33,079 bases of DNA, from contig JAZGJJ010000114.1 of the NCBI GenBank assembly GCA_036482575.1, positions 1 to 33,079 of the forward strand. Direction: 5' to 3'. Made by a program: the position numbers and the translations under genes. This stretch comes from Thermodesulfobacteriota bacterium (GTDB taxonomy: Bacteria; Desulfobacterota; GWC2-55-46; JAUVFY01). The notes beneath the pieces were generated by a model. That model made no database searches. It was given only the letters and a program-made list of their open reading frames with translations, and had not been told where the DNA came from. This document shows, piece by piece, positions 1,651-31,614 of the stretch. Position 1 is the first letter of the stretch. The number at the start of each line of letters is the position of its first letter.

Positions 1651-2022
1651 TTACGGTCCCTTACACTTGCAAAGTCCTCTCAGGTGATCCTTGAGTTCGG
1701 CTATCTCCTTTTCCGTAAGCGTCTTTCCGAAAGGCGGCATCATCGTGGATTTGCTCGTCGCCTTGCCGCCGCCGGTTATGACGTTTATTATGTCCTCGTC
1801 GGTCAGCTTGCCCATCTCTTTCGGGTCGGTGTGGTTCCTGGGGCTTACGGGCTGGCTCTTGGTGGCGTTCGGACCGTCCCCCTTGCCCTCAAGGCCGTGG
1901 CACTGGGAACAGTAGAACCTGTAGTTCTCTTTTACGTCGGCCAGCGCGGCGGAGTAGCCCGAAATGACCACCGTAAAGGAAAAAACCAGCAAGGCTGCCG
2001 CGTATATAAACTTTTTATCCAT
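1651..2022 (-). CDS. Small periplasmic mono-haem cytochrome c (class I) with C-terminal LCKC motif
   Basis: Signal peptide, CSQCHG, GDGPNA, PRNHT, MMPPFG. Paralogue of 6182-6667; both end in ...LCKC... Confidence 0.9.
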   Translation of the reverse strand: MDKKFIYAAALLVFSFTVVISGYSAALADVKENYRFYCSQCHGLEGKGDGPNATKSQPVSPRNHTDPKEMGKLTDEDIINVITGGGKATSKSTMMPPFGKTLTEKEIAELKDHLRGLCKCKGP

Positions 2023-2082
2023 CCTGCGTTATCCGCTCCTTTCGACCGTTATTTTCCTGTTTTCCACTTTCCAACAACGTCC

Positions 2083-2745: not shown

Positions 2746-2783
2746 CAAATACCTCCTTGCAATATGCTGTGATTTACCCCGCA

Positions 2784-2812
2784 TGTATAACCCAGCGACG
2801 GGGCTTTGTCAA
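2784..2812 (-). promoter_or_regulatory. Sigma70-like promoter for the cytochrome c genes
   Basis: On the minus strand: TTGACA (2812-2807), 17 nt spacer, TATACA (2789-2784), about 40 nt upstream of ATG 2745. Confidence 0.55.
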
Positions 2813-2897
2813 GGACTTTGTTTCCCCCGCCGGAATACTTATCTCCGTCCCCGCCGAGCCCCCGCAAAGCCGCCCCCGCATTGGCCCGGAAGCGGGG

Positions 2898-3959
2898 CTA
2901 CTTCCCGCTCAAAAGCGCCTGTTCCGAAGGGGCCAGCTTGATCGAGAGCCCGGCCTTCCCGCCGCCGCCCGAAATGAGCTTTGCGGTATCGACCATCCCG
3001 AGATTATGCTTGGCGACCTCCGTAAACCAGACGAGCCCCGACCCGCCCGCGGCTATGTCCACGGGCTTTCCCGAGGCCTTGGGAAGGTCTATCTCAAGAA
3101 AGCTCTTGCTCTTCGTGTCGAACCTCCCTATCCTCCCCCCCAGCGAATCACAGTACCAGAGCATTCCCTTCCGGTCGATTGCCAACCCTTCGGGGACCCT
3201 TTTCCCGGGCATATCGAACTCCTTAAAACTCCCCTTCGCCCCCTTAACCCCTTTCTCCAGGTCAAAGCGGACTATCTTATGGCTATTCCTTGCCCCGAAC
3301 CACAGGTAGCCGTCTCCGTCGGCCACGAGCTCCCCTGGTATGGCAAAGGGCGGCGAGATGGTAATCTCGGTTATCTTCCCGGTTTCCGGCTCCAGGCGCG
3401 CAATCTTATTCGCCTGCGACTCCACGAACCAGACCTCCCCCGAGTCCAGGGCCACGATCCCTACGGGCTGGCTCTGCTTGGTGGGGATGGAAAATTCCTT
3501 TATTTTAGAGGTCTTGGGGTCGAGCATGCCTATCTTATTCGCCATGAACTCGGTAAACCAGACCCTGCCATGTCCGTCGATTGCTATCTTATAGGCCTGG
3601 GATTTGGGTGTGGGTATCTCGACCTCCTCGAACTCGCCCGTTTTCGGGTCAAAAGAGCCTATCTGGTTCGCGTCCTGCTCGACGAACCAGATCCTGCCGT
3701 CCGGACCTATGGCCAGGTCTATCGGCACGCTCGAGGATGTGGGAATTTCGAACTCTTTGAAGACCGAAATTGAAGGCTGGAAGCGCACGAGCTTGTTGGC
3801 CCTGGCCTCCAGGAACCAGACGTTGCCCGATGGGTCCTCCGCCACGGCAACCGGGAAGGAGCGGGGGCTTGGGGCCGGATGCAACTCCACGCCGGAGCCC
3901 GCGAAGGAAGGGACCGCGAATGTCAGTATGAATAGCGTAATTAGCGGAAGGTTTCTCAT
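2898..3959 (-). CDS. Secreted seven-bladed beta-propeller, Vgb / streptogramin-lyase-like repeat family (COG4257-like)
   Basis: Signal peptide MRNLPLITLFILTFAVPSFA. Seven repeats of the G.(V/I)WF.E...NKIG..DP type (GNVWFLE, GRIWFVE, GRVWFTE, GEVWFVE, GYLWFGA, GMLWYCD, GLVWFTE). Confidence 0.85.
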   Translation of the reverse strand: MRNLPLITLFILTFAVPSFAGSGVELHPAPSPRSFPVAVAEDPSGNVWFLEARANKLVRFQPSISVFKEFEIPTSSSVPIDLAIGPDGRIWFVEQDANQIGSFDPKTGEFEEVEIPTPKSQAYKIAIDGHGRVWFTEFMANKIGMLDPKTSKIKEFSIPTKQSQPVGIVALDSGEVWFVESQANKIARLEPETGKITEITISPPFAIPGELVADGDGYLWFGARNSHKIVRFDLEKGVKGAKGSFKEFDMPGKRVPEGLAIDRKGMLWYCDSLGGRIGRFDTKSKSFLEIDLPKASGKPVDIAAGGSGLVWFTEVAKHNLGMVDTAKLISGGGGKAGLSIKLAPSEQALLSGK

Positions 3960-3965
3960 ATCAGC

Positions 3966-5207
3966 CTACTTCTGTGTCCTGCGGATAATATACCACAAAG
4001 CCGCCGCGAATAGAACGAAAACCACGATTGCGGCCGCCGCCTTGCCCGAGCCTCCGCCCCCTCCGCCCTCGCCGCCCTTAGCCTCCTCCGCAGGGGGAGG
4101 AGTATCCACCATCGCCGGGCCGGTATCCTCTGCCGGGGGCTCCTCCAGGGTCGTCTCTTCGACTGCCGGGACGAGCATCAAGATACTGTTGGCGTCCCTG
4201 TCGGACTCGGTAAGCCAGACCCTGCCGCGAGGGTCTACGGCTATGCCGCTCGGGAGGCTCCTGGGGGTGGGGATATCGTACTCCCTGAAGGTCGCGCTCC
4301 GGGGGTCGAAGCTGCCCACCTTGTTCCCCCTGTTCTCCACAAACCAGATAAGGCCGTCGGCACCCACGGCAAGGGCCACCGGCACAGAGGACACCTTGGG
4401 GATGGTCGCCTCGTTGAACTCCCCGGTGGCCGGGTCTAACATACCGATCTTATTGCCGTTCATCTCGACGAACCACACGCGGTCGTCGCTGTCGACGATA
4501 AGGTCCGCGGGGTTCACAAAGGGGTGCTGGATGAGGTATTCGGTCATCGAGCCGGCGGCCAGGTCGAGCTTTCCGATCTTATTGCCAACGGATTCGGCGA
4601 ACCAGACGACCCCGTTCGAATCCACGCTTATACCGTTAGGCTGGCTGTCCGGGGTGATGACGGCGTACTCCTCGAACTTCCCCTCCTTGAAGCGCCCGAT
4701 CTTATTGGCGTTCCTCTCGGTAAACCATACCGCGCCGTCCGGGGCCACGGCGATCTTATACGGCTCGGCCGCGGGGGTTGGGACCTTGAAGGTCTCCGTC
4801 TTGCCGGAGGCCGGAGATATGCGCCCTATGGAGTTCACCGCGGAGGAGACGAGCGTGAACCAGATCGTCCCGTCCGGGGCCGCGGTTATGTCCGCCGGGC
4901 TCGCGCCAGCGGGCAGGTCGAACTCCGTAAACTCCTCTTTTTCCGGGTCGAAGAGCCCTATCCTGTGCGTACTCTGCTCGGTGAACCAGATACGTCCCTC
5001 GCCGTCCGAGACTATGCCCAGGGGGTGGCTGAAGGGAGTAGGCAGGGGGTAGCCTTCCATTGTCGCACCGGCCACACCACCGTCGGATGCGGACGCACCG
5101 GGGAGGTGGAGGACCAGCACTATGGCCGCCGATATCAAACACGCCCTCATCACCAGGCGCGCCCTCATCGTGAGGTGGAATATGCCGTAAAACGGGGTTC
5201 TTAACAA
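3966..5207 (-). CDS. Vgb-like seven-bladed beta-propeller with Pro/Glu/Gly-rich linker and C-terminal transmembrane anchor
   Basis: Seven WF(T/V/A)E blades, then ...EEPPAEDTGPAMVDTPPPAEEAKGGEGGGGGGSGK plus the hydrophobic helix AAAAIVVFVLFAAALWYII-RRTQK. The start is ambiguous: TTG 5207, ATG 5168 or ATG 5150 (MRACLISAAIVLVLHLPGASA looks like the signal peptide). Confidence 0.85.
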   Translation of the reverse strand: MLRTPFYGIFHLTMRARLVMRACLISAAIVLVLHLPGASASDGGVAGATMEGYPLPTPFSHPLGIVSDGEGRIWFTEQSTHRIGLFDPEKEEFTEFDLPAGASPADITAAPDGTIWFTLVSSAVNSIGRISPASGKTETFKVPTPAAEPYKIAVAPDGAVWFTERNANKIGRFKEGKFEEYAVITPDSQPNGISVDSNGVVWFAESVGNKIGKLDLAAGSMTEYLIQHPFVNPADLIVDSDDRVWFVEMNGNKIGMLDPATGEFNEATIPKVSSVPVALAVGADGLIWFVENRGNKVGSFDPRSATFREYDIPTPRSLPSGIAVDPRGRVWLTESDRDANSILMLVPAVEETTLEEPPAEDTGPAMVDTPPPAEEAKGGEGGGGGGSGKAAAAIVVFVLFAAALWYIIRRTQK

Positions 5208-7952: not shown

Positions 7953-9665
7953 TTAGAACCGCTCTACGCGGGCCGGAGCCGTGATCACCCCTGGTTCAAC
8001 CAGTTCTCTATGCTGCTGGGCTTCCTCGTAGTCACCGGTTACCAGGTTGGCCTGGCCCTTGGGACCGTCCACGAAGAACGTAGCCCTCATCTCCAGATGC
8101 AGCGGGCCGCAGAAGTGCTGGCAGAATATCTCGTACTCGCCGGCATAGTCCGCGACGAACTCGCTCATGATCGACATGCCCCTGTTGGCCGTGAGGTTCG
8201 TCCTCAGGCCATACGGACCGTAGATGGTGAAGCCCATCTGTACGTCCGGGTTCTTGGTGATACCCGCGGCCTTGTCGATGTTGGTGACGATTATCCTCAC
8301 CTTGTCGCCCTTGTTGACCCTTATCTGCCTGGGTACGTAGCCGTAGCTGAAGGCCTTGACGTGGACTTCCTTCACGCCGCCCTTCTCGACTATACCGGGC
8401 TTCCCCTTGTCCCTGGGAAGTATGGTGACCTTCGCGCTACTGCGGTGGGACGGATGGACCTCGGTGATGGGCTTCTTTATCAAGTTGACCGCCTGCCCCA
8501 TGTCCCACTGCTTGATCTTGCTGGCGAAGATGACCTTGGCGTTGTGGGGCTCGCCGTCGACAGGTATTATCCTGAGCGTCCTGCCGTAGGTCGGGCTCTT
8601 CTCGTCCACGTCCAGCATCTCGTGGTTCACGGGCCAACGGATGCCCGTGGGGCTCCACAGCCCTGTGGAGAACTTGTTCAGGGCAAAGACCTTGGTGTCG
8701 TCGGCGCTTATGGCGATGTGCCCGATCCTGTAGTGAATCGGGAACTCGTCGGCCACCGCGAGCTTCTCGAGGTCTATCTTGACGACGGCGTCCGCGACGA
8801 AGCAACTCGTGTAGGAATACCTGCCATCGCTCCTGAAGACGTTGTGGAGCGGACCGGCGCCCGCCGGTATGACCTTCTTAACCGCCAGCTTGTCCACGTC
8901 GATTATGGTTACCGTCGCGGAGAGCTTGTCGGCGACCTGTACGTACCTTCCGGTCGGAGAGACGTTCGTGCCGTGGGGGTTCTTACCAACCGGTATTTCC
9001 TTTATGAGCTTGAAGGGGTTGGTGGAGAAGACACCCACTGTGGAGTGGTAGTAGTTGCCTGAGAATACCATCTCCTTCCTGCCGGGCTTGCTGACGTCGA
9101 GGTAGTCCGGGGCGCTGGGCGCCGGGCCCCAGTCGATGATCTGGGCCTTGCCGGTCGCTATCTCGATCTTGGCCATCTTACCGGTATACTCGCCGGTGCC
9201 GTAGAGGAACTTGCCGTCCTGGGACATCGATATGTGATGTACCCCGAACGGGAACGGCAGGCCTATCAACCTCTCGAGCGTTCCGAGCTGCAGGTTGATG
9301 ACGCCGATGGTGTTGGAGCCCTTGTCGTTGACGTACATATACCTGCCGTCGGGCTTGAGGTTCGAACCGCCGGCGTTGGTCGGAGCGCTGAACAGGTTCT
9401 CGTGAAGGTCCACACCCACCGGTATATGACGGTAGGTCCTCATGCTTGGGACACCGATTACAGCCACCGCGCCGTCGAGGCCGCCAGCGTTATAGAGAAG
9501 CTGGTCGTCCTTCAGCGGAGCATCGTTGGGGCTCTTTTCGGTAACGTGCCAGTCCCTCGCATCCTTCTTTGCGGCAAAGGTTGCATCGGGCGCACCCGCG
9601 AAAACCACGAGCGCTATGGCTGCTGACAATAGACTTATCTTAGTTACTCGCACGTTTCTAGTCAC
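7953..9665 (-). CDS. nosZ: Divergent nitrous-oxide-reductase (NosZ)-like protein: Sec signal, beta-propeller, C-terminal CuA cupredoxin domain
   Basis: The C-terminus IVTNIDKAAG...DVQMGFTI...YEIFCQHFCGPLHLEM carries C-x3-C-x3-H-x2-M (nt 8088-8123) and parallels the NosZ TNID...HGF...C.WFC..LH.EM region. Propeller motifs VHHISMSQDGK, GKNPHGTNVSPTGRY...KLSATVTIID, GAGPLHNVF and IHYRIGH resemble NosZ CuZ-ligand blades. No twin-arginine in the leader. GTG 9665 abuts the SD, so GTG 9653 is a plausible alternative start. Confidence 0.75.
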   Translation of the reverse strand: MTRNVRVTKISLLSAAIALVVFAGAPDATFAAKKDARDWHVTEKSPNDAPLKDDQLLYNAGGLDGAVAVIGVPSMRTYRHIPVGVDLHENLFSAPTNAGGSNLKPDGRYMYVNDKGSNTIGVINLQLGTLERLIGLPFPFGVHHISMSQDGKFLYGTGEYTGKMAKIEIATGKAQIIDWGPAPSAPDYLDVSKPGRKEMVFSGNYYHSTVGVFSTNPFKLIKEIPVGKNPHGTNVSPTGRYVQVADKLSATVTIIDVDKLAVKKVIPAGAGPLHNVFRSDGRYSYTSCFVADAVVKIDLEKLAVADEFPIHYRIGHIAISADDTKVFALNKFSTGLWSPTGIRWPVNHEMLDVDEKSPTYGRTLRIIPVDGEPHNAKVIFASKIKQWDMGQAVNLIKKPITEVHPSHRSSAKVTILPRDKGKPGIVEKGGVKEVHVKAFSYGYVPRQIRVNKGDKVRIIVTNIDKAAGITKNPDVQMGFTIYGPYGLRTNLTANRGMSIMSEFVADYAGEYEIFCQHFCGPLHLEMRATFFVDGPKGQANLVTGDYEEAQQHRELVEPGVITAPARVERF

Positions 9666-9715
9666 CTCCTCCTACTTTATATACTTCTATAACGTTCTAC
9701 CCCTGAGACACGACT

Positions 9716-9740
9716 CCGATATGCCTGACAGCCATATCGG
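9716..9740. promoter_or_regulatory. 25-nt near-perfect palindrome in the NosZ-like leader (operator or RNA hairpin candidate)
   Basis: CCGATATGCCTG-A-CAGCCATATCGG; 11 of 12 arm positions are complementary. It lies 51-75 nt upstream of GTG 9665. Confidence 0.4.
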
Positions 9741-9877
9741 GCCATTTCTCCTCGCGCTTCTCGTTTTTCTTACTGTCTGTCCTGGTGCTTTTTGTTGCCC
9801 TGTTGCACTGATTTACTGCCTCGTTCCCTTCCCCATTAGGCACTCCCCCCCCCAAAAGACAATAGCGGATAAGGTCA

Positions 9878-9906
9878 AGAGTAGACTATCGGACCAATGT
9901 TGTCAA
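9878..9906 (-). promoter_or_regulatory. Sigma70-like promoter of the NosZ-like gene
   Basis: On the minus strand: TTGACA (9906-9901), 17 nt spacer, TACTCT (9883-9878), preceded by a T8 tract (UP-like). This implies a leader of about 200 nt. Confidence 0.5.
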
Positions 9907-9955
9907 GAAAAAAAATGCGGCCCTCAAAAAAAAATTGGCGGGGGGGAAACTCCCC

Positions 9956-11419
9956 TCAGACCACCTCGTATTCCTCCTGGTGGAAGAGCTCCACGGGCTT
10001 TACCACGATCCTTTTTTTGAACTTCTTCTCGAGCTTCTCCACCACCCCGCCGGGGGCCCCCAAACGCTCGGAAATGACGGGGTTCGCGTAGACAAGGACC
10101 TTCCTCTTCCTCTGCGGGAGGTCCCTTAGGAGATCCCGGTATATCTCGGCCACGAGCGTATCCTTGTCCTTCACAAGCCCGTTCCCGTCGCAGTAGGGGC
10201 ACGGCTCGCAAAGGCCCTGGGCGAGGCTCTCCCTGACCCTCTTCCTGGTCATCTCCGCTATGCCGAGCTCCGATATCTTCAATATGTTGGTCCTGGCCTT
10301 GTCCGCCTTAAGCCCGTCCTTCAGGGCGTTATAGACCTTCATGCGGTTGGCAGTCCTGGCCATGTCTATAAAGTCTATGACGATTATGCCGCCTATGTTC
10401 CTGAGCCTTAAGTGGTAGACCACCTCGGCCACCGCCTCGAGGTTGGTCTTCAAAATGGTCTCCTCGGAGTTCTTCTTGCCCACGTACTTGCCGGTATTCA
10501 CGTCGATGGCCGTAAGCGCCTCCATCTGGTCTATCACCAGATGGCCGCCAGAGCGGAGCCAGACCTTCTTATCGAGTGCGGCCTCTATCTCCAGCTCTAT
10601 GCCGTGGGCGTCGAATATCGGCTCACTATCCTTATATAGCTCCACCCTCTTCCTGAGCGACGGCATAACCTCTTCGATGAACTCCACCGCCTTGGTGTAC
10701 TCGTCCACGGAGTCTATAACGAGCCTCTTTACGTCATGGGAGAAGACGTCCCTCACCATCCGGAGGGTCAGGTCGAGCTCTTCGTAGATGAGGGCCGGGG
10801 CGGACTGCTTCGCGGCCTTCTTCTGTATCCCCCGCCAGAGCCTCAGGAGGAACTCCATGTCCGCCTTTATGTCTTCCTTCCTGACCCCCTCGCAGACCGT
10901 CCTTATAATGAAGCCGACGCCGGGGGGCCTCAAGGACGCGACGATATCCCTCAGGCGCCTCCGCTCCTTCTCGTCCCCGATCCTGCGCGAGACCCCGACC
11001 CGGTCATAGGTGGGCATCAAGACCAGATGCCGCCCCGGAAGCGACACGTATGAGGTGAGCCTCGCCCCCTTGGTCCCCATGGGCTCCTTGGCCACCTGAC
11101 CCACCATCTCCTGGCCCTCCTTCAGGAGGTCCTGGATGCGGGAACGCGAAGACGAAGAGCCCCCTTTCTCCCCGTAGTCCAGGTCGTCCGGGGCCTCCCG
11201 GACGTCCTTTGCGTGCAGGAAGGCCGTCCTGTCGAGGCCCACTTCCACGAAGGCGGCCTGCATGCCCGGAAGCACCCTCATGACCTTGCCCTTGTAGACG
11301 TTCCCGGTGAGCCCCCGGTCCTTGCCCCTCTCGACGTAGAACTCCACCAGCCTGCCATCCTCGACTATGGCGGCCCTTATCTCAAGGGGGTTCGAATTTA
11401 TGATTATCTCTTTGTCCAT
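9956..11419 (-). CDS. rng: Ribonuclease G (Rne/Rng family)
   Basis: MDKEIIINSNPLEIRAAIVEDGRLVEFYVER..., S1 domain GNVYKGKVMRVLPGMQAAFVEVG, and 487 aa is typical of RNase G. Confidence 0.92.
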   Translation of the reverse strand: MDKEIIINSNPLEIRAAIVEDGRLVEFYVERGKDRGLTGNVYKGKVMRVLPGMQAAFVEVGLDRTAFLHAKDVREAPDDLDYGEKGGSSSSRSRIQDLLKEGQEMVGQVAKEPMGTKGARLTSYVSLPGRHLVLMPTYDRVGVSRRIGDEKERRRLRDIVASLRPPGVGFIIRTVCEGVRKEDIKADMEFLLRLWRGIQKKAAKQSAPALIYEELDLTLRMVRDVFSHDVKRLVIDSVDEYTKAVEFIEEVMPSLRKRVELYKDSEPIFDAHGIELEIEAALDKKVWLRSGGHLVIDQMEALTAIDVNTGKYVGKKNSEETILKTNLEAVAEVVYHLRLRNIGGIIVIDFIDMARTANRMKVYNALKDGLKADKARTNILKISELGIAEMTRKRVRESLAQGLCEPCPYCDGNGLVKDKDTLVAEIYRDLLRDLPQRKRKVLVYANPVISERLGAPGGVVEKLEKKFKKRIVVKPVELFHQEEYEVV

Positions 11420-11500: not shown

Positions 11501-14080
11501 TTAAAAAACGGTCCTGGTCTTGAGGATGGGAATGAGGGAGGCCTTTTCGGCCGGAAGGTTAAGGATATGCGCTACGACCTCGTGGGGCTTTACGCTTACC
11601 CCGTTTTCGATCCCGAGTCCAAGGGAGATGGTAAGGTCCCCCACATGGGAAATCTCTCCCACAAGGGGCCTTATATCGACTTCCTTTCGCTTTTTCTCCC
11701 TATCGAGGTGCAGTACTACGGAATCCATATCCAGAAAATCCCTCAAAATCCCATCAAGTCTTTTCGGCTCTATGTCCAAGCCCGCCGGGCCGTTTTTCAG
11801 AAATATAAGGAAGTTTTGCGCTCTCATAATAGCAGATAGGGAGGGGAGTTGCAAGGAAATATGCCTCCCCCCGGAAATCTTTATCCCTTCGGGCAGGGCG
11901 GCGTTAAACCGCTCCGCCACGGCCTCGACCGACAAGGGGACGCTGAGTTCGATATCCATGTACTCGTCGGCGCTTTCCACGCCCACGGGCAGCGGCGGGG
12001 AGAAGGCTATCTTCGGAAGAGGGTGGAACCCCCGTGAATAGCAGACCGGAAGCCCAGCCCTCCTTCCGGCCCTCGAGACGGCCTTTACAAGCTCCAGGTG
12101 GCCGAGGAACCTCATCTCCCCGGTCTTCGAAAATGATAGCCTGACCCTCGAACGTTCCTCCACGGCCAGCCTTTTTTTCCACTTCCCCTCCCCATCCCCC
12201 CGGTCCGGCCCGTCGGCAAAGAGCCTGTTCTTTATGAGCTTATGGTCGCATACCCCGCAGTCCGTGCACGGCCCGACCCTGCAGTCCGGGGTCTCCTCAA
12301 CGGAAAGGGACCTCTCCCTCTCCTCCAGGAGGAACTCCTTGGTCACACCCGGGTCGAGGTGGTCCCAGGGGAAGACCTCGTCGTCGGCCCGCCGCCTTTC
12401 GGTATAGAAGGCCATCTCGACCCCCACGGCGGAAAAAGCTTCATTCCAGGCCTCCCAGTCGAACTCCTCGCTCCAGCCGTCGAACCTGCAACCGGCCCTG
12501 AAAGCCTTTTCTATAACCGCCCCCAGCCGCCTGTCCCCCCTTGAGAAGACCCCTTCGAGAGTACTCATCCTCGCGTCGTGCCACTTAAAGCCGAGCCCGC
12601 GCTTCCTCGACTCCCTCTTTAGAAACTGGAGCCGCTCGACCGACGTCTTGAGCGGAAGCTGCGGCTCCCACTGGAACGGTGTAAAGGGTTTCGGGATGAA
12701 GGTCGCCGCACTCACGTTCACCTCAGGCGCCCCTCCCCTCCTCCTTCCCCCTCCCTCACCCCGGCCACCCCGGGCCCTGCGGCCCGCGTCCTTTACCTCC
12801 TTTGAGAGGCGTACGATCCCGGCGAGATCCTCCTCGGTCTCCGTGGGAAGGCCCATCATGAAGTAGAGCTTCATCGCCCGCCAGCCGAGAGAGAAAACCT
12901 CTTCGGCGCTGCGGATCAAGTCCGCCTCGTCGATACCCTTGTTTATAAGTTTCCGGAGCCTCTCGCTCCCGGCCTCCGGGGCGAGCGTAAAGCCGGTCTT
13001 CCTGACCTTCTTTATCTCCGAGGCCAGGGCCGTGCCGAGAGTACCTACCCTGAGCGACGGCAGGGACACCGCCACCCTCTCCTTTTCGAGCCGGTCCATG
13101 ATCGAGCACAGAAGCCCCTCTATGCACGAGTAGTCGCCCGTGCTGAGAGAGAGGAGCGAGACCTCTTCGTAACCGGTATTCTTAAGCGATTCGGTTATGA
13201 GCCTTACGATGCTTTCCGGGCTCCTCTCCCTCATGGGCCTTGTAATCATGCCTGCCTGGCAGAAGCGGCACCCCCTGGTGCATCCCCTGGAGACCTCGAC
13301 ACTCAGCCTGTCGTGTATGGTCCGGGGGAAGGGTACGACCGGCCTTACTGGCAACGGCAGCGCCTCGAGGTCCGGGGCCATCCTCTTCCCGACCCTGGAA
13401 TAGTCAGGGAAGAGCGGCTTAACCTCCCTTACGGTCGAGTCATCATTATATGCGGCCTCGAAGAACGACGGTACGTACACGCCACTCACCCCGGAGAGGG
13501 TCTTTAATATTTCTTCCCTCGACGCCCCGTTCTTTCTGCCCTCGATGACGGCCTCGGATATTTCGGTTACCGCCTCCTCTCCGTCGCCGAGGAGGAAGCA
13601 GTCGAAGAACTCGGCCACGGGCTCGGGGTTGAAGACGCACGGCCCGCCGCCTATGACGATCGGGTCGGCCTCTCCCCTCTCGCCTGCCTTAAGCGGTATG
13701 CCGCCGAGCTCGAGCATGTTCAAGACGTTGGTGTAGGAGAGCTCGTACTGGAGGGAGAAGCCCAGTATGTCGAACTCCCCCAGCGGCGTGCCGGACTCGA
13801 GGGTCACGAGCGGCAGCCCCTTCTCCCTCAAGAGCGCCTCCATGTCCTTCCACGGGGCAAAGACCCTCTCGCAGGCTATGTCCTCGTGAGAGTTCAGTAC
13901 CTGGTAGAGTATCTGTATGCCCAGATGGCTCATCCCCACCTCGTAGGTGTCCGGGAAGGCCATGGCGAACCGGAGGCTTACCTCCGCGGGGTCCTTCCTT
14001 ACGGAGTTGATCTCCCCGCCTATGTAGCGGCTGGGTCTCCTCACGAGCGGGAGATACTCTTTTATGTTATGAGTGGTCAT
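11501..14080 (-). CDS. B12-binding radical SAM protein fused to a DUF2344 (radical SAM-associated) domain, TIGR03960/TIGR03936-type
   Basis: CTRGCRFC (Cx3Cx2C). The C-terminal RVRLSFSKTGEMRFLGHLELVKAVSRAGRRAGLPVCYSRGFHPLPKIAF is DUF2344-like. Start moved to ATG 14080 (GAAGGAGAG SD; MTTHNIKEYLPLVRRPSRYIGGE). Confidence 0.9.
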   Translation of the reverse strand: MTTHNIKEYLPLVRRPSRYIGGEINSVRKDPAEVSLRFAMAFPDTYEVGMSHLGIQILYQVLNSHEDIACERVFAPWKDMEALLREKGLPLVTLESGTPLGEFDILGFSLQYELSYTNVLNMLELGGIPLKAGERGEADPIVIGGGPCVFNPEPVAEFFDCFLLGDGEEAVTEISEAVIEGRKNGASREEILKTLSGVSGVYVPSFFEAAYNDDSTVREVKPLFPDYSRVGKRMAPDLEALPLPVRPVVPFPRTIHDRLSVEVSRGCTRGCRFCQAGMITRPMRERSPESIVRLITESLKNTGYEEVSLLSLSTGDYSCIEGLLCSIMDRLEKERVAVSLPSLRVGTLGTALASEIKKVRKTGFTLAPEAGSERLRKLINKGIDEADLIRSAEEVFSLGWRAMKLYFMMGLPTETEEDLAGIVRLSKEVKDAGRRARGGRGEGGGRRRGGAPEVNVSAATFIPKPFTPFQWEPQLPLKTSVERLQFLKRESRKRGLGFKWHDARMSTLEGVFSRGDRRLGAVIEKAFRAGCRFDGWSEEFDWEAWNEAFSAVGVEMAFYTERRRADDEVFPWDHLDPGVTKEFLLEERERSLSVEETPDCRVGPCTDCGVCDHKLIKNRLFADGPDRGDGEGKWKKRLAVEERSRVRLSFSKTGEMRFLGHLELVKAVSRAGRRAGLPVCYSRGFHPLPKIAFSPPLPVGVESADEYMDIELSVPLSVEAVAERFNAALPEGIKISGGRHISLQLPSLSAIMRAQNFLIFLKNGPAGLDIEPKRLDGILRDFLDMDSVVLHLDREKKRKEVDIRPLVGEISHVGDLTISLGLGIENGVSVKPHEVVAHILNLPAEKASLIPILKTRTVF

Positions 14081-14263
14081 ATACTCTCCTTCTCTGCAAT
14101 CCCCGATTCCCGCCTCCGGCATGACAAAGCATAGATACCGGATCAAGCCTGTCGTGAGTTCATCGAACGGTCCGGTATGACAGAAATGTGTATGCGGTCT
14201 TCTGTAACGTTAGCAACATCTATTGCGGCCGATAGTTTCTAAATTTGAACCGCCCTCAGGGTG

Positions 14264-15847
14264 TTAGCAGACACCGCACCTGAAGCAGCTCCCCACCTCG
14301 CACGGGGGGGTGGTCTTACCTTCGAGCCCTCGTTGGTACTCGTCCCAGAGGTAGCCGCGTTCGAGGCCGTGGTCCACGACCTCCCAGGGGAAGGGCTCGT
14401 CAACACCCCTCTCCCTGTGGACGCACTCTTCGGCCAGGGGGGCAGGATGGTCGGCGGACCTAAGCGCGCGCCTGAGACCCACCTTCGAGGCCTCGGCTAT
14501 CACCCTCCCCGCCCTCCTGTCCGCCCTCGAAAGGTAGGCCTGCGCAAAGGCCTTCCGAACGGAGAGGGTTTTAACGTCGATACCCCCCTCTCTCTTGAGC
14601 ATCTCCTTTATAATGGAGTACCTCTTCTCTATCGTCTCGACCCTCTCGAAGGGGTGCCACTGGAACGGGGTAAAGGGTTTTGGCATAAAGGGGTTAATGC
14701 TGAGCGTCAGCTTACCCTTGCCCATGAGTTTCTTTAGCCTTAGAGAAAGCTCCCCTATGGCACGGGCGTCGGCGTCGGTCTCGGTCGGGAGCCCCACCAT
14801 GAAGTAGAGCTTCAGTTTCCTGAAACCCGCTTCCTTTACAAGTCTTATTGCTTCGTCTATCTCGCTGTCGCTTATATCCTTATTTACGACTCGCCTGAGT
14901 CTCTCCGTCCCGGCCTCCGGGGCGAGCGTAACGGTCCTGTAGCCGGCCTTCTTAAGGAGGTCGAGAAGCTCGGCATCGAGCATATCGAGCCGGAGTGAGG
15001 AGAGCGTCATCTCTCTACCCCCCTCTATCCCGAGCCTCAGGAGTTCTTTCAGGTGCGGGTACTCGGAGACCGCCGCCCCCACGAGCCCCACCTTGCCGCT
15101 TTCCCGAAAGCCCCTCTCCACGATCTCCTTAACCGGGCCGAGCTCCCTCATACGCGGCGGCAGATAGATAAAGCCCGCCGCGCAAAACCTGCATCCCCGG
15201 CCGCAGCCCCTCTCGACCTCCAGGAGCGTCGCGCTGCCGAACTCGGTTGCCGGGGTCAACACGACGCTTTCGGGCACGGGCGAGAGGTCGGTATCTGCCC
15301 TGGCCCTCGTTACCCTCTCCGGCGCGCCGGGGGCGGCCTTTATCGAGGCCACCCGTGGGCCGTCGTAGGTGAACTCATAGAGGGCCGGCACGTAGACTCC
15401 CTCTATCCCTGCGAGCGATTCAAGACCCCCTTCTTCCCCCCCCTGCCCCCCTTCCCCGACGGCTTCGATAAACGGCCCGACCATCCCCTCGGCCTCTCCT
15501 ATGAAGCAGAGGTCCATGAACTCGGCCACGGGCTCGGGGTTAAGGGATACGGCGCAGCCCCCTGCCATAACGAGCGGGTGGGCCCGGCCCCTCTCAATCG
15601 AGAAGAGCGGCACCCCGGCAAGCGCGAGTATGCGGGGGATGTTTATAAAGTCCTCCTCGAAAGAGACCGAGAAGGCGATTATGTCGAAGCGTTCGAGCGG
15701 GGTCTGCGACTCGAGGGAGAAAAGTTTTTCCCCGCTCTTTTCGAACTCCCGGAGCTCGTCCTTATCCGGCAGGAACGCCCTCTCGCACGCGCAGACCTCA
15801 AGGTCGTTAAAGAGCCGGTAGAGCGTCTGGAAGCCGAGGTTGCTCAT
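14264..15847 (-). CDS. B12-binding radical SAM protein, paralogue of 11501-14080 without DUF2344
   Basis: CGRGCRFC motif and a C-terminal CEVGSCFRCGVC. The conserved N-terminal strand (RVRVCLVYPNAYSLG) lies in frame upstream of ATG 15847, so the real 5' end is probably near 15970 (see findings). Confidence 0.85.
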   Translation of the reverse strand: MSNLGFQTLYRLFNDLEVCACERAFLPDKDELREFEKSGEKLFSLESQTPLERFDIIAFSVSFEEDFINIPRILALAGVPLFSIERGRAHPLVMAGGCAVSLNPEPVAEFMDLCFIGEAEGMVGPFIEAVGEGGQGGEEGGLESLAGIEGVYVPALYEFTYDGPRVASIKAAPGAPERVTRARADTDLSPVPESVVLTPATEFGSATLLEVERGCGRGCRFCAAGFIYLPPRMRELGPVKEIVERGFRESGKVGLVGAAVSEYPHLKELLRLGIEGGREMTLSSLRLDMLDAELLDLLKKAGYRTVTLAPEAGTERLRRVVNKDISDSEIDEAIRLVKEAGFRKLKLYFMVGLPTETDADARAIGELSLRLKKLMGKGKLTLSINPFMPKPFTPFQWHPFERVETIEKRYSIIKEMLKREGGIDVKTLSVRKAFAQAYLSRADRRAGRVIAEASKVGLRRALRSADHPAPLAEECVHRERGVDEPFPWEVVDHGLERGYLWDEYQRGLEGKTTPPCEVGSCFRCGVC

Positions 15848-17000: not shown

Positions 17001-17720
17001 TTAAACAGCAATTGCCCGTGGCATTTCGTCCCATGTTCTACCTTCAAGCTCCCGCCCGTTTTTCTTTTTATTCATGCCGCCCCACTGTTTGAAGAAGAAA
17101 GGGACCCCTGCCTTCATACATTGATTGCGAATGTCGATTGCCCATAACGGGTCCATTGGGCGCGCTCTCGGGCCTGATTCACCCCCAACAATCACCCAAT
17201 CGATTCCCTTTAAATTTAGTCGATATATCGGTCCCAAAAGGGGCTCAATGGAAATAAATTTTATCGCCCCCTTTGTTTTACGGAGGTGGTCTATACGAAA
17301 AGTATAGTCCTGGTTCTCTACGCTAACCCCCGTCCAGATATGCGTGTCCAACGGCAAGCGTGGACTTAGTTCAAGTAGTCGGTCAGACCTCTTGGTAAGC
17401 ACTTGAAAGCGATGCCAATTTGCCTGCCTCATCACATCGAATACCTTAAATATAAATTCGTCCGGGACATCCTCGTGGAAGAGATCGCTCATAGAATTTA
17501 CAAAAACGGTCTGGGGTTTTTTCCACAAAAGAGGCAACTCTAATGCATGCCCATGCACAGTTGTTTTAAAGCCGTTGGTGTAGTTAGGCTGTCCCATAGC
17601 CTTGAGTCGTTTCGCCATTCGTTCGGCGTAACAGTGTTTACAGCCAGGACTAATCTTTGTACACCCCGTCACAGGGTTCCATGTGGATTCAGTCCATTCG
17701 ATAGATGAGTTTGCCGCCAT
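17001..17720 (-). CDS. Phage Gp37/Gp68 family protein (DUF5131), three-Cys motif
   Basis: [65 protein letters not shown] and FFFKQWGG are all hallmark blocks of the family. Confidence 0.9.
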
Positions 17721-18562
17721 TACATCATTCCCCGCCTACGGTATTTACTGAAAATATCTCCAACAATTTTACCACCGGTCGGATTCTGAGTGGCAAAAAA
17801 AAGGTAGTAAACAATACTTCCCTTGGTATTTCTCATGGCTATAGGTTCGGGAACATACCCAAAGCCAGCCACTTTCTTCAAGCGCTCTTGATACGCTTTT
17901 GTAAGCATCCTAATATCCTCTTTTCTTTCTTCTTCCGCACCAAACAGGTCCATTTCTTTAGTATACGCTATTTCCCTCCAAGATTCATCCCCCCAAAAAG
18001 CGTTCATTCTCTCTATGTGAGCCGGGCCTACGGTATCCAGCTTATGCTTGAGCACATTCATATTCATATCCATAACTGGAAAGTTCAACAATATTTCCAT
18101 GCTTTTACATTTCCCTGCGGCCTCAACAACTTTCCAGTTCAGATGTAATCCATATGGGTCGAGCAAGCAAAGACCCCTTTCAAACTTCTCGTAGCGCACC
18201 TTCGGAAAGACTTTCTCTAACAAAACCAAATTGCAATCGTCCACATAGTAGTGAACATCCGCTCTGTCCCCTACCAGATCTTTTAAGACGTTCACCTTAT
18301 TTTTGTTCTTGTCTATAAAGTGATACTCACGGAATGGAGTATCTATGTAAAGAGTTCTGATGGGGCTTCCAGAAATCGACTTTCCCGTGGTTTTTGAGAC
18401 ATGCATGCCGGCACCGGCAAAAGCATCTATGTAAATGTGATAAAAACCCTTTTGGGCCGACATAATCTTTGAGAATGCCGCAGCATACTCCTTGATAATA
18501 TTAAGCTTGATCTCGGACCAGTAACCAATTTCATCAAACTTCAACCCCGACTTCTTAACCAT
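17720..18562 (-). CDS. tcmP: Three-Cys-motif partner protein TcmP (methyltransferase-like Rossmann fold)
   Basis: Sits adjacent to and overlaps DUF5131 by 1 nt (TAATG). Motifs [22 protein letters not shown] and LLDPYG occur in class-I methyltransferase order. Confidence 0.8.
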
Positions 18563-18607
18563 GCCAACCCCTTAGTCTTGTCCGAAGCCATAAATCACCG
18601 CCGCTCT

Positions 18608-19125: not shown

Positions 19126-20295
19126 TTAGTCCGCCTGCTTCCTCAGGAAGGTCGGGGTATCGTAGTGGTCCTCGTCCGCGGCGTTGAAGCCGCCGAGCTT
19201 CCCGAGCCTCGTGACCTCGCCCTTGCCGAGCTGGGCGGCCTTCTCCTGCTCCTTCCTCACCACCGTGGGCACGTCGAGGTCCTCGATGATGACGGCCGGG
19301 GCCACCCCGCCCCTGTAGACCTTCTCGCCCTTGGCCTTGCCGAAGCCCGTGGCAACGACCGTTATCCTTATCTCGTCGACGAGCGCCTCGTCGAACACCA
19401 CGCCGGTTATTATGTTGGCGTCGTTGTGGGCCTCCTCGTGGATAAGGCTCATGGCCTCGTGCATGTCGTGGAGCGTCAGCTCGCTCGAAGCGCCGGTTAT
19501 GTTGACCAGCACCCCCCTGGCCCCGCTTATGGAGATGTCCTCCAGGAGCGGACTCGTTATGGCCTTCCTCGCCGCATCCTGGGCCCTGTTGTCTCCGTCG
19601 GCCGTGCCGCTGCCCATTATGGCCTGCCCCATCTCGCCCATGATGGTCCTGACGTCGGCGAAGTCCACGTTCACGAGCCCGGGGACGGTTACGACGTCGG
19701 AGATCCCCCTTACGGCCTGGTAGAGCACGTCGTCGGCCTTCTTGAAGGCCTCGGCCAGAGAGGTCTTCTTCCCGGCCACCGAGAGGAGCCTCTGGTTGGG
19801 TATGGTGATGACCGTATCCACCGTCTCCCGGAGCCTCTTAAGACCGTCCTCGGCCATCTTCGCCTTCCTGGTGCCCTCGAAGGAGAAAGGCTTCGTCACG
19901 ACGGCCACGACGAGCGCGCCGCACTCCCTGGCGGCCTCGGCCACTACCGGGGAGCCGCCGGTGCCCGTGCCGCCGCCCATGCCGGCCGTGACGAAGACCA
20001 TGTCCGCGCCGTCGATGGCCTGCATTATCTGATCCTTGCTCTCAATGGCGGCGTCCCTGCCCACCTCGGGGTTGGCCCCGGCGCCGAGCCCCTTCGTGAG
20101 GTTCGCGCCCAGCTGGATCTTCACGTCGGCCATCGAGGCATCGAGCGCCTGGCTGTCCGTGTTGGCGGAGAGGAAGTCCACCCCGTCGAGCCCTCCGCTT
20201 ATCATCGTGTCCACGGCGTTGCTGCCGCAGCCGCCCACGCCCACGACCTTCAGCTTTGCCCCTCTGTTAAAACCGTCTTCGAAATCGAATCCCAT
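19126..20295 (-). CDS. ftsZ: Cell division GTPase FtsZ
   Basis: KLKVVGVGGCGSNAV, GGGTGTGGSP (tubulin signature), and position in the dcw cluster. Confidence 0.97.
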   Translation of the reverse strand: MGFDFEDGFNRGAKLKVVGVGGCGSNAVDTMISGGLDGVDFLSANTDSQALDASMADVKIQLGANLTKGLGAGANPEVGRDAAIESKDQIMQAIDGADMVFVTAGMGGGTGTGGSPVVAEAARECGALVVAVVTKPFSFEGTRKAKMAEDGLKRLRETVDTVITIPNQRLLSVAGKKTSLAEAFKKADDVLYQAVRGISDVVTVPGLVNVDFADVRTIMGEMGQAIMGSGTADGDNRAQDAARKAITSPLLEDISISGARGVLVNITGASSELTLHDMHEAMSLIHEEAHNDANIITGVVFDEALVDEIRITVVATGFGKAKGEKVYRGGVAPAVIIEDLDVPTVVRKEQEKAAQLGKGEVTRLGKLGGFNAADEDHYDTPTFLRKQAD

Positions 20296-29270: not shown

Positions 29271-30344
29271 CTACCTTATCTTGAGCGTACTTATAGCTAC
29301 GAGCGACAGTATTATCGCTATTATCCAGAACCTTACTATTATCCTCGGCTCGGGCCACCCCTTGAGTTCGAAGTGGTGGTGTATGGGCGCCATGGCAAGC
29401 ACCCTCTTGCCCCTCAGCTTGAAGGAGCCTACCTGGAATATGACCGAGAGCGCCTCCACGACGAATATCCCGCCGACGATTATAAGCAGTATTTCGTGCT
29501 TGCTGGCCACGGCCAGGGCCCCGAGCGCCCCTCCGAGCGAAAGGGCCCCTATATCCCCCATGAAGACCTGCGCGGGATAGGTGTTGAACCAGAGGAAGCC
29601 CAGGCTCGCCCCCACCATGGAGCCGGCCAGCACCGCGAGCTCACCGGACCCGGAGACGTGCATTATCTGTAAGTATTCGGCTATCTTAATGTGACCCGTA
29701 ATGTAGGTCAGGAACAGATAGGTACCTGCCGCTATGGTAACGGGCCCTATGGCCAGGCCGTCGAGCCCGTCGGTAAGGTTCACGGCGTTCGACGCCCCGG
29801 CAATGACCAGCGCCACAAAGGGTATGTACAGGATCCCGAGCTCTATGTGCACCCCTTTGAAGAACGGCACGGCTATGCCTGTATCGAACCCGGACATATA
29901 AAGGAAGAGCCCCGCGAGCAGGGCAACGACCATCTGGGAGGTGAACTTCAGAAGGGGCCTGAGCCCCTTCGGCTCCCCCTTTACCACTTTCTTATAGTCG
30001 TCCACGAAGCCTATCCCGCCCATGCCGACGATTACGAAGAGGAGGAACCAGATTAACGGGTTGGTGAGGTTCGCCCACAAGAGCACCGGCACGATTACCG
30101 CGACAAGGATCATGACACCCCCCATCGTGGGGGTCCCCGCCTTGCCCGCGTGGGTGGGCGGGCCGTCCCCCCTTATCACCTCGCCGACCTGCATGGCCGT
30201 AAGCCTCTTTATAAAGTACGGTCCGATAATGAAACTAAGCACAAGGGCCGTCACGGTCGCGTAGATAGTCCGAAACGTTATGTACTGAAATACGTTGAAG
30301 ATCGCGTGGTACTTGGCCAGTGGGTACAAAAAATGATAGAGCAC
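29271..30344 (-). CDS. mraY: Phospho-N-acetylmuramoyl-pentapeptide transferase
   Basis: (V)[24 protein letters not shown] is the canonical MraY N-terminus. GTG 30344 is preceded by TAAGGAGAGGGG. Also contains [13 protein letters not shown]. Confidence 0.95.
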
Positions 30345-30348
30345 TTTT

Positions 30349-30361
30349 CCCCTCTCCTTAT
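30349..30361. repeat. 13-bp direct repeat, copy 1 (CCCCTCTCCTTAT), at the mraY-proximal edge of the insertion
   Basis: Identical to 31602-31614. It contains the mraY SD and the TAA stop of the 260-aa ORF. Confidence 0.9.
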
Positions 30362-31140
30362 CCCGTCCCTGCGGGAGGATAAAACACACCCAATATCATG
30401 AACTTATCCCTGAACCTTTGCCAATTCCCCACGAAAAAATAGATGTCGTTCTTCTCTGCGCATATTCTATCGAGCCACGTTTCTTTTATTTTCTCCAACA
30501 AAGTGTTTTCATCCTTATATCTCCCTCGCCACTGCCTATACGCTTGACCTATTTCCCAATCGATTATAGGCAAAGTATGGCCTGCACATCCGGGTTCACC
30601 CTGGCAATAAAAAGAATACCTAAAGTCATACGGTATGGGTTCTATTGCCTCCATTCTTTTGTTGTAGAAGCTAAGTTGCGCATAGCAACTCTTCCTCTCT
30701 TGTTGATCTTTTTTCCTGGCCACCTTCCAGTGAAAACCTATATTATGAGGCCTAAACATGCCCAAAGATTTGTCCTTGCTTTTACTCTCCCCATAAACTT
30801 CACACAACGAGGCAGAGACGGTAGGCAAAAGCACCTTCTTTCTCTTCTCCCACCCATTGCTTGTATCGTACACATCGACCACGTTTATCTTGTTGCTAAT
30901 GTCGACCTTAAAACTCTCCGGCCGCGCATCGTCTTTTGCCTTTGAGACTTTTACCTCGATCACACTATACTTCTTGAACCTTTCAGCACTATCCAAGTCT
31001 CTAAAAGGTATGGGGTAAAGTCTTCTCCATTCCCCGCTATCAATATCTACACCGGCAACGCAAACGGTTTCCCCGTACTTCTTGCTCGGATTCGGGTAAG
31101 CCTTAACAGCCACAAGAACTCGTTTGGTTTCCCAAAGCAA
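30358..31140 (-). CDS. Hypothetical 260-aa protein, partner of DUF488; no family recognised
   Basis: Long low-GC ORF co-oriented with DUF488 and 9 nt downstream of it. TTG start after GGGGGAG. Features: [52 protein letters not shown]. Confidence 0.75.
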
Positions 31141-31601
31141 TGACTCCCCCTATAAATGTTTTATTATAAGCCCATTGCCGTCCACTTCCTTAATCTTCTC
31201 GGCCACTATCTTCCTATGGCAATCAGAAGGTTCTTTCTCCATACACATAAAACAGCTAACCCCATGAACTATAGTATTAAGATACAAGTCCCTGACAACG
31301 CTCATCTGTGTCTTCAGATGCTTCCGATACTCTTTGAAAAAATAGTCGTAGTCGTTGTCTTGATAGAGTTTCTGCCGCAATTCCTTTGGGCTTCCTAATT
31401 CTTTCGTGTGCACATACATTATATTGAACCGACCGAGATACTCCTTGAGTTTATTTTTTGAAAACCCGGGTTTTCGGCTGGCCGGAACCTCTCTAACATC
31501 AATAAGAACGTTAACCCCAAATTGTTGGAGTCTTTCAACGAAGTCCTCAATTTTCCTCTTTTCGTATCCTATGGTAAATACCGATATCGGCTCCATGTTA
31601 G
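30362..31601 (-). other. Low-GC two-gene insertion inside the dcw operon (no mobility gene)
   Basis: Bounded by the 13-bp direct repeat. Hand count gives 24/60 G+C for 31141-31200, against 36/60 for 31681-31740 in murF. Confidence 0.75.
31150..31596 (-). CDS. DUF488 family protein
   Basis: VFTIGYEKRKIEDFVERLQQFGVNVLIDVREVPASRKPGFSKNKL, YVHTKELGSP, and CFMCMEKEPSDCHRKIVAEKI are typical DUF488 blocks. Confidence 0.88.
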   Translation of the reverse strand: MEPISVFTIGYEKRKIEDFVERLQQFGVNVLIDVREVPASRKPGFSKNKLKEYLGRFNIMYVHTKELGSPKELRQKLYQDNDYDYFFKEYRKHLKTQMSVVRDLYLNTIVHGVSCFMCMEKEPSDCHRKIVAEKIKEVDGNGLIIKHL

Positions 31602-31614
31602 CCCCTCTCCTTAT
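31602..31614. repeat. 13-bp direct repeat, copy 2 (CCCCTCTCCTTAT), at the murF-proximal edge of the insertion
   Basis: Contains the murF TAA stop and serves as the SD for the DUF488 gene (TAAGGAGAGGGG-CTAAC-ATG). Confidence 0.9.

Follow-up and report, generated by a model that had tools for sequence, protein, structure and literature searches.

In wyosine biosynthesis, a base is N-methylated by Trm5, after which TYW1, a radical S-adenosylmethionine (SAM) enzyme, removes a hydrogen from the added methyl so that a larger modification can be formed. Radical-SAM remodeling of a base within DNA is represented by gp53 of phage M6, an isomerase resembling spore photoproduct lyase (SPL), while methylation of a base amino group is represented by Escherichia coli RlmJ, the 23S rRNA m6A2030 (N6-methyladenosine) methyltransferase (Pfam family PF04378; PDB entries 4BLU and 6QE0). 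A third point of comparison is the set of unpublished phage-defense candidates that PADLOC lists as PDC entries, two of which, PDC-M41 and PDC-M30, describe the pairing of TcmP (three-Cys-motif partner) with a DUF5131 (phage Gp37/Gp68) protein. The subject of this analysis is one such tcmP-DUF5131 gene pair, carried in a 33,079-nt stretch of contig JAZGJJ010000114.1 (assembly GCA_036482575.1, a Thermodesulfobacteriota metagenome-assembled genome [MAG]), referred to below as the window.

By sequence, the pair in the window differs from the catalogued system in nothing and is a typical member of PDC-M41. The products of the adjacent genes match PDC-M41A (TcmP; E = 5.1e-79) and PDC-M41B (DUF5131; E = 2.8e-121) end to end, and match PDC-M30 strongly for component B and more weakly and partially for component A. 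Examples of the pair from phages and plasmids also match the PADLOC PDC models. The original prediction, which had been made from the DNA sequence of the window, called the pair an uncharacterized system; this holds in that the literature gave no established function, but the pair had already been catalogued. Because PDC entries are unpublished candidates, membership says nothing about mechanism, and the literature search found no published phage-resistance test of PDC-M41. The novelty therefore lies in the chemistry of the two families rather than in this locus. The reading that we rate as slightly better than even is that the pair is a mobile, two-enzyme, SAM-dependent module acting jointly on one substrate, most probably a nucleic acid base, with its value most likely in conflict with phages or mobile elements.

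The original prediction had described two low-GC, translationally coupled genes of these families downstream of ftsZ, beside an RHS remnant and apart from other phage genes, and all of this was borne out. Both open reading frames (ORFs) are intact on the minus strand with the boundaries first proposed, and the TAA stop codon of TcmP (17722 to 17720) shares one base with the ATG start codon of DUF5131 (17720 to 17718), an overlap suggestive of translational coupling. TcmP scores 195.4 bits against TIGR04474 (E = 1.6e-57; cutoff, 53), a match that spans residues 14 to 274 and profile positions 1 to 262 of 263. DUF5131 scores 342.8 bits against PF07505 (E = 1.4e-102; cutoff, 28.9) over residues 4 to 234 and all 243 profile positions, and it also matches phrog_2045. 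Both reading frames thus cover their family hidden Markov models (HMMs) end to end, and the NCBI annotation of the contig likewise names the two genes TcmP and Gp37/Gp68. On recount, exactly 23 of the 60 bases at 17761 to 17820 are G or C. Per-gene G+C content is 0.421 for TcmP and 0.474 for DUF5131. The surrounding genes are richer: ftsZ has 0.653, the RHS remnant 0.59, the secretin-like ORF on the other side 0.60, and the next radical-SAM gene 0.62. At third codon positions the difference is larger, with 0.48 and 0.50 in the pair versus 0.76 to 0.90 in flanking genes (0.90 in ftsZ, 0.79 in the downstream radical-SAM gene). The pair is a sharply bounded low-GC island that was horizontally acquired.

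Comparisons of fold and profile indicate that TcmP is a remote homolog of RlmJ with an RlmJ-like class I SAM-dependent amino-methyltransferase fold. An AlphaFold2 (AF2) model built from an alignment of 38 homologs was confident (predicted local distance difference test [pLDDT], 83; predicted template modeling score [pTM], 0.83). In a Foldseek search of the PDB, this model best matched E. coli RlmJ and the DUF519 structure 2OO3 (E ~7e-7 to 1e-5; template modeling [TM] score, 0.48 to 0.53), with RlmJ at E ~7e-7 and a TM score of 0.50 to 0.53. Generic class I methyltransferases, over 100 in number, ranked next, and nearly all of the 114 PDB matches at E ≤ 1e-3 were of this class. RlmJ was also the only significant profile match: hhalign aligned a profile of 77 diverse TcmP members, two of them from phages, with E. 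coli RlmJ at a probability of 91.9% (E = 7e-7; TcmP 63 to 146 on RlmJ 97 to 176). Beyond this stretch, RlmJ YLDTHAGAG could be matched by eye to the TcmP segment containing DAFAGAG, and RlmJ HADVLKH to TcmP WSEIKL. A PDB sequence search with TcmP, as a single sequence and as a profile, gave no match, and a fold search of BFVD returned generic methyltransferases but no informative viral analog.

Residues that, according to mutagenesis or crystal structures, contact SAM or act in catalysis in RlmJ have near-invariant counterparts in TcmP (Table 1). Common to both are the Y-x-D-x-[HF]-A-G-A-G form of motif I, the G-S-P loop, the acidic residues of motifs II and III, the D-P of motif IV, and the motif-X lysine. 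In RlmJ, K18 and D164-P165 are essential and catalytic, and the other residues contact SAM: its adenine is stacked upon by H42 and bound by D143, its ribose is bound by E118, and its amino-acid moiety accepts a hydrogen bond with S100 (PMC3814359). Motifs I, II, III, and IV occur in that order in TcmP and are conserved across the family. The methyltransferase motifs read in the original prediction were in this way upheld by fold, by profile comparison with RlmJ, and by conservation across the 77 members, with two amendments. The proposed VDD motif is present, but its conserved residue is the second aspartate (D109; family consensus, GDCN). The proposed DPPY-like motif IV is present as LDPYG, but it reads DP-Y and is one proline short, such that hhalign places D135-P136-Y137 on D164-P165-(P166)-Y167 with a one-residue gap. 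TcmP would be expected to bind SAM and transfer its methyl group. Unlike RlmJ, TcmP lacks the helical subdomain (RlmJ ~46 to 92), so that motif I and the G-S-P loop are separated by ~10 residues rather than ~50, and it has no clear counterpart of the N-terminal Y4 and H6. Their genetic settings differ as well: RlmJ is encoded by a housekeeping gene that stands alone, whereas the gene for TcmP is mobile and linked to that of a radical-SAM partner.

That partner, DUF5131, looks like a radical-SAM-type enzyme, judging from its invariant residues and from the weak structural matches of its model. The C-x6-C-x2-C motif noted in the original prediction is present and supplies three putative [4Fe-4S] ligands, and a GGESG segment may be the radical-SAM "GGE" motif for SAM binding. 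Conservation was scored over 78 sequences that include stand-alone phage versions, and invariant residues were C20, C27, C30, Y31-A32, T109-K110-R111, E135, E159-P160, the GGESG segment at 179 to 183, and K211-Q212-W213-G214. The NCBIfam radical-SAM model TIGR04471 matched DUF5131 partially and below threshold (E = 4e-23; 82 bits versus a cutoff of 355). Foldseek matched the DUF5131 model (pLDDT, 71) to SPL first (E ~1e-3; TM score, 0.44) and then to NifB, LipA, viperin, and MiaB, so that the top matches were all radical-SAM enzymes (TM score, 0.36 to 0.44). A PDB sequence search with DUF5131 gave no match. The SFLD/RadicalSAM.org table lists DUF5131 as a radical-SAM subgroup in megacluster 5 together with SPL, and this entry was the sole mention of the family found in the literature. 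An iron-sulfur cluster and radical chemistry would follow if this reading of DUF5131 is correct.

Table 1. Positions in the window of the gene pair, its predicted functional residues, and the adjoining genes
Feature	Position	Strand	Basis or conservation
tcmP, three-Cys-motif partner protein, 280 aa	17720-18562	minus	ORF, TIGR04474, PDC-M41A, AF2/Foldseek, hhalign
DUF5131 (phage Gp37-Gp68 family) protein, 239 aa	17001-17720	minus	ORF, PF07505, PDC-M41B, TIGR04471 (partial match), Foldseek, SFLD
TAATG junction, one base common to TcmP stop and DUF5131 start	17718-17722	minus	Sequence
AAGGGG, possible ribosome-binding site of TcmP, 5 nt 5' of its ATG	18568-18573	minus	Sequence only
TcmP K19, putative motif-X lysine, counterpart of RlmJ K18	18506-18508	minus	77/77; equivalence by eye, outside hhalign-aligned stretch
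TcmP motif I DAFAGAG, predicted SAM binding (RlmJ DTHAGAG)	18407-18427	minus	D46 72/77, F48 70/77, G52 72/77
TcmP F48, counterpart of RlmJ H42	within motif I		70/77
TcmP G65-S66-P67, aligned with RlmJ G99-S100-P101	18362-18370	minus	hhalign; S66 71/77
TcmP D84 (FID), predicted motif II acid, counterpart of RlmJ E118	18311-18313	minus	40 D and 37 E among 77; hhalign-aligned
TcmP D108-D109-C110-N111, with D109 as predicted motif III, counterpart of RlmJ D143	18230-18241	minus	D109 72/77, N111 72/77; hhalign-aligned
TcmP predicted motif IV L-D135-P136-Y137-G, DPPY-like minus one proline	18149-18163	minus	D135 76/77, P136 75/77, Y137 63/77
DUF5131 three-Cys motif C20-x6-C27-x2-C30, putative [4Fe-4S] ligands	17631-17663	minus	Invariant, 78/78
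DUF5131 G179-G180-E181-S182-G183	17172-17186	minus	Invariant, 78/78
RHS-core remnant, 117 aa	18608-18961	minus	TIGR03696, E = 4e-10
ftsZ, directly upstream of the pair with the RHS remnant intervening	19126-20295		
Secretin-like ORF, 299 aa	16077-16976	plus	PF00263, E = 3e-10; weak Secretin_N

The radical-SAM reading of DUF5131 is supported by what replaces it. Among 80 genome loci analyzed, only one (L019, 10872 to 12014) has TcmP without DUF5131, and there TcmP is followed after 22 nt by a 380-aa protein whose Cys motif (GCSHACRFCY) has the canonical CX3CX2C spacing. The protein is one of a large PF04055 family to which JGI gives the name "DNA repair photolyase." Other members of the family also have a TcmP-family gene directly upstream, at L100, L103, and L104 and, in truncated form, at L099; at L101 and L102 the upstream TcmP-family gene is absent. 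TcmP is thus recurrently paired with two different radical-SAM-type proteins. The relationship between the partners is claimed as functional analogy and not as homology, since an hhalign comparison of DUF5131 with the canonical partner family aligned the Cys-motif stretch alone and was not significant (probability, 3%). A PDB sequence search with the alternative partner, as a single sequence and as a profile, returned no match.

The pair behaves as one horizontally mobile two-gene unit. At least 548 TcmP loci were found in 185,579 species genomes, and the best 80, which were analyzed here, come from more than 12 phyla and are only 52 to 66% identical; a TcmP profile search returned 4,596 representatives of 50%-identity clusters. 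DUF5131 lies immediately downstream of TcmP on the same strand in ~73 of the 80 loci, with stop and start codons overlapping by exactly one base in 51 of the 73 and by any length in 57. The two proteins have diverged in a correlated manner (Mantel r = 0.23, a value reached by 0 of 2,000 permutations). In 51 of 67 loci, G+C content of the cassette is below that of its flanks by more than 0.03 (mean difference, −0.073). The pair also occurs together in all six IMG/VR loci examined for it, two plasmids, and three phages. No third gene is conserved among up to four neighbors per side at ~80 loci, where the largest cluster comprised seven loci and was not position specific.

Movement of the cassette can be seen by comparing the window with the locus carrying its closest relative, in a Deltaproteobacteria MAG (L004). 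The two regions are syntenic (two radical-SAM genes and RNase G, 60 to 67% identity), yet in L004 the cassette sits between the two radical-SAM genes (1955 to 5117), whereas in the window these genes are only 118 nt apart (14146 to 14264) and the cassette is displaced upward by one gene, into the interval bounded by ftsZ and the secretin-like ORF. The different junctions are evidence for mobility. The cassette proteins of the two genomes are 66% and 74% identical, a divergence comparable to that of the flanking genes, yet the G+C content of the cassette is still low; the L004 cassette also adds a 188-aa ORF (2504 to 3070) that contains AFIDILGFS and has no PADLOC match. In a Nitrospirota MAG (L032, 7335 to 11526), the cassette directly follows ftsA-ftsZ, with TcmP starting 56 nt past the end of the FtsZ match. 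FtsZ of this MAG is only 50% identical to that of the window, versus 73% for DUF5131. Perhaps the cassette repeatedly lands where the dcw cluster ends, or perhaps the L032 position is a coincidence.

Arrangement of the pair is not fixed in every replicon. An Acetobacter plasmid (L097, 6228 to 7861) has DUF5131 first, overlapping TcmP by 4 nt, and on pSymA of Sinorhizobium meliloti 1021 (L098, 7001 to 9968) the two genes are convergent and ~1.4 kb apart. The pSymA TcmP (SMa2243) lies near the Hna defense gene (SMa2245), with which it shares a NolR-dependent upregulated gene set; literature searches for SMa2243 found expression tables but no functional data. At L037, an opposite-strand, Cys-rich ORF of 216 aa (9475 to 10210) with an HNH-like end (WDHIVP...GNIVPACTACN) separates TcmP from DUF5131, and by its sequence looks like a homing-endonuclease-type gene inserted into the pair.

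Genomic context points to a role in conflict, though not strongly. Restriction-modification (R-M) families, for whose proximity the original prediction had suggested looking, were the commonest among 138 nearest neighbors in raw, uncontrolled counts (ResIII, 7; N6_N4_Mtase, 4; DEAD, 4; N6_Mtase, 3; HSDR_N, 3). PADLOC identified type I and type III methyltransferases and one type I restriction enzyme among these neighbors, and toxin-antitoxin and AbiE genes flank the pair at L001 and L003. In the temperate Gordonia phages Easley (L087, 2992 to 5483) and PantheRoc (L085, 2580 to 5736), a TcmP-family gene comes directly after the immunity repressor and shares its strand, the two being separated by, or overlapping over, 3 to 4 nt, and a convergent DUF5131 gene overlaps the 3' end of TcmP with its own. 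The position after the repressor is where actinobacteriophage defense genes such as CarolAnn 43/44 occur. The CarolAnn gp43/44 system itself was considered as a relative of the pair and rejected, being RexAB-like and unrelated. Easley gp39 carries the annotation "methyltransferase" and is a long TcmP; the winged helix-turn-helix (HTH) domain at its C terminus (PF22560, "GMT-like wHTH") hints at DNA binding.

The original prediction had also called the pair recurrent in phages and prophages. This is accurate for DUF5131, which 181 of 50,697 phage records contain and which mostly forms a longer gene standing alone within a replication module, but hardly for the pair: TcmP is in 5 of these records and at 7 IMG/VR loci, versus at least 548 loci in genomes. 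With this change of emphasis, the proposed role in nucleic acid modification or phage conflict fits all of the context evidence, as a candidate role.

A possible sequence of events follows from these assignments. The one-base stop/start overlap would cause both proteins to be made together. TcmP would bind SAM via motifs I to III (D46/F48/G52, S66, D84, and D109), and a flipped-out base would enter the pocket formed by K19 and D135-P136-Y137, where its exocyclic amino group could be methylated as by RlmJ and DNA m6A methyltransferases. DUF5131 would hold a [4Fe-4S] cluster on C20, C27, and C30, bind a second SAM via GGESG, and cleave it to a 5'-deoxyadenosyl radical. This radical could then abstract a hydrogen from the same nucleotide, possibly from the new N-methyl group, to yield a further modified base by the logic of Trm5 followed by TYW1. 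Modification of DNA by M6 gp53 is a precedent for the proposed radical-SAM step. The analysis itself establishes membership in the two families, homology at the level of fold and profile, conserved residues of catalytic type, obligate pairing, mobility, and the genomic contexts. Use of SAM by either enzyme, methylation, the iron-sulfur cluster and its radical, a nucleic acid as substrate, which of the steps comes first, and a part in defense are presumptive. A more specific version, in which TcmP and its radical-SAM partner (DUF5131 or, in other genomes, a canonical SplB-like enzyme) install a novel hypermodified DNA base through N-methylation and then radical elaboration or cross-linking of the methyl group, is offered tentatively and seems rather unlikely.

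The precedents on which this scheme draws are imperfect. SPL is the best Foldseek match of DUF5131 and lies in the same RadicalSAM.org megacluster, SplB and M6 gp53 both act on bases within DNA, and the alternative TcmP partner bears a photolyase name. DUF5131 nevertheless differs from SplB in its CX6CX2C rather than CX3CX2C motif, in being ~100 residues shorter than SPL, and in having no PF04055 match, and the structural match between the two is weak (TM score, 0.44). Trm5/TYW1 shares the logic of an N-methyltransferase followed by a radical-SAM enzyme and is a chemical precedent only, being tRNA specific, housekeeping, and without sequence relationship to TcmP or DUF5131.

Several findings weigh against a jointly acting nucleic acid modification module with a conflict role. 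TcmP has no Pfam match at E ≤ 0.01, including PF04378 and all Pfam methyltransferase models (E. coli RlmJ scores 424 bits on PF04378), and its motif IV lacks the second proline. An entropy profile of the TcmP family contained no hypervariable segment longer than ~20 aa that could act as a target-recognition domain, so that an R-M-type activity of TcmP, with methylation of specific DNA sequences, is unlikely and RNA or a free nucleotide is a possible substrate. In DUF5131, the sole Pfam match at E ≤ 0.01 is PF07505 and not PF04055, the Cys spacing is not canonical, the AF2 model is poor around the three cysteines (residues 23 to 54, with pLDDT below 50), and the SPL match is weak in both E value and TM score. 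Variant Cys spacings do occur in the radical-SAM superfamily. Stand-alone DUF5131 genes are located in replication modules of lytic phages, which implies that the radical-SAM partner can work without TcmP. Nearest neighbors of the pair are mostly ordinary housekeeping genes. Finally, the literature searched for TcmP and DUF5131 gave no function and no biochemical or genetic data for either family.

The best-surviving alternative, although an unlikely one, is that the pair is an accessory tRNA or rRNA modification system without a conflict role, comparable to RlmJ or Trm5/TYW1 and spread horizontally. The nearest characterized homolog of TcmP is an rRNA m6A methyltransferase inactive on single-stranded DNA (PMC3814359), a conserved RNA target would account for the missing recognition domain, and the prevalence of housekeeping neighbors suits such a role. 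This explanation has to contend with the absence of the RlmJ helical subdomain from TcmP and with the resemblance of the RlmJ active site to DNA m6A methyltransferases (PMC3814359). Patchy spread over more than 12 phyla, the strong GC deficit, and different junctions in syntenic genomes also argue against an accessory housekeeping function, as do the position beside the immunity repressor in temperate phages and the listing as a PADLOC candidate.

About as doubtful is a viperin-type pathway, in which a free nucleotide would be converted to a modified form that blocks replication or transcription of phages or acts as a signal. Even conservation of TcmP and the lack of a recognition domain would suit one universal small substrate, the RlmJ pocket binds AMP in crystals (PMC3814359), stand-alone DUF5131 genes occur in phage nucleotide and replication modules, and viperin is among the Foldseek matches of DUF5131. 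Those matches are weaker than the SPL matches (E, 0.04 to 0.13 versus 1e-3), however, and TcmP's nearest relatives work on RNA or DNA polymers, the kind of substrate to which the winged-HTH domain of the long Easley TcmP also points. Prokaryotic viperins and the Ophion system resemble the pair as radical-SAM enzymes in antiphage defense, but they belong to other radical-SAM subfamilies, viperins act alone on nucleoside triphosphates, Ophion works with PHP and PRTase proteins, and neither has a methyltransferase partner. Ophion was likewise rejected as a relative, since its partners are different and it is unrelated.

Less probable again is an R-M-like pair in which TcmP methylates host DNA for protection and DUF5131 is the effector, using radical chemistry to damage incoming DNA that lacks the methylation. 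The methyltransferase gene comes first and is translationally coupled to its partner, an arrangement found in many R-M operons. R-M genes are frequent neighbors, the protein that DUF5131 best matches in structure is DNA-acting, and there is no separate nuclease or other third gene that is conserved. With type II R-M systems the pair shares the form of a two-gene, methyltransferase-first, mobile low-GC cassette that often lies among other R-M genes; it differs from them in having a radical-SAM-type partner in place of a recognizable nuclease and a uniformly conserved TcmP family without a variable target-recognition domain. Also against this reading, some plasmids and phages have the two genes in reversed or convergent arrangement, and DUF5131 occurs without a protecting TcmP in 170-odd phage genomes. 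We know of no radical-SAM nuclease.

It is very improbable that the pair is a relic left by a decayed prophage or island and now does nothing in this genome. In favor of a relic, the pair adjoins an RHS-core fragment, has foreign G+C content, and is accompanied by no other mobile-element genes, tRNA, or flanking repeats. Against it, both ORFs span their HMMs with all family-invariant residues intact, the stop/start overlap is kept, and the same two-gene unit is both isolated and intact in ~73 of 80 genomes.

Upstream of the pair lie the dcw genes murF-like, mraY, ftsQ, ftsA, and ftsZ. The RHS remnant is an orphan ORF, without a full-length rhs gene in its vicinity, that encodes the end of an RHS repeat-associated core domain plus a short tail at the C terminus; its G+C content is host-like, unlike that of the adjoining cassette. 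On the other side, the secretin-like ORF converges on DUF5131 with 24 nt between their ends, is about half the typical length of GspD/PilQ, and has no counterpart at the syntenic locus L004. Beyond it, on the minus strand (11501 to 15847), are tandem paralogous radical-SAM genes with Radical_SAM_N2 domains (527 aa and 881 aa, the latter also with DUF2344), followed by RNase G. This trio is conserved in L004 and consists of host genes unrelated to the cassette. A scan of the window found no tRNA, no Rfam RNA, and no other phage gene. Flanking repeats sought as integration signatures around the cassette were limited to short, chance-level matches, and promoter- and terminator-like sites at the cassette were no more frequent than in shuffled sequence.

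A second low-GC island of two genes (G+C, 0.40 to 0.44) is located inside the dcw cluster (30358 to 31596, minus strand), between the murF-like ligase gene (31611 to 33062) and mraY (29271 to 30389). It encodes a DUF488 protein (31150 to 31596; PF04343, E = 2e-31) and a 260-aa protein without a Pfam match (30358 to 31140), and its proteins match the PADLOC candidates PDC-M19A (E = 3e-40) and PDC-M19B (E = 6e-67). A single cell division gene cluster thus carries two foreign candidate-defense cassettes, and it is mainly as one of these two that the tcmP-DUF5131 instance in this window matters.

For the two families, the analysis gives a very common gene pair a concrete and testable enzymology, that of a predicted RlmJ-type amino-methyltransferase with an SPL-type radical-SAM enzyme, and the pairing of TcmP with a canonical radical-SAM protein elsewhere supports this combination. 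If the product is a modified base, the pair would represent new chemistry for DNA or RNA modification, and if that base is in DNA, DUF5131 would be the second radical-SAM enzyme found to install a DNA modification, after phage M6 gp53. If the pair defends against phages, it would constitute a new class of defense mechanism. Should the hypermodified DNA base prove correct, TcmP and its partners would form a new mobile epigenetic or antiphage module, the first defense-type system to join a methyltransferase with a DNA-acting radical-SAM enzyme.

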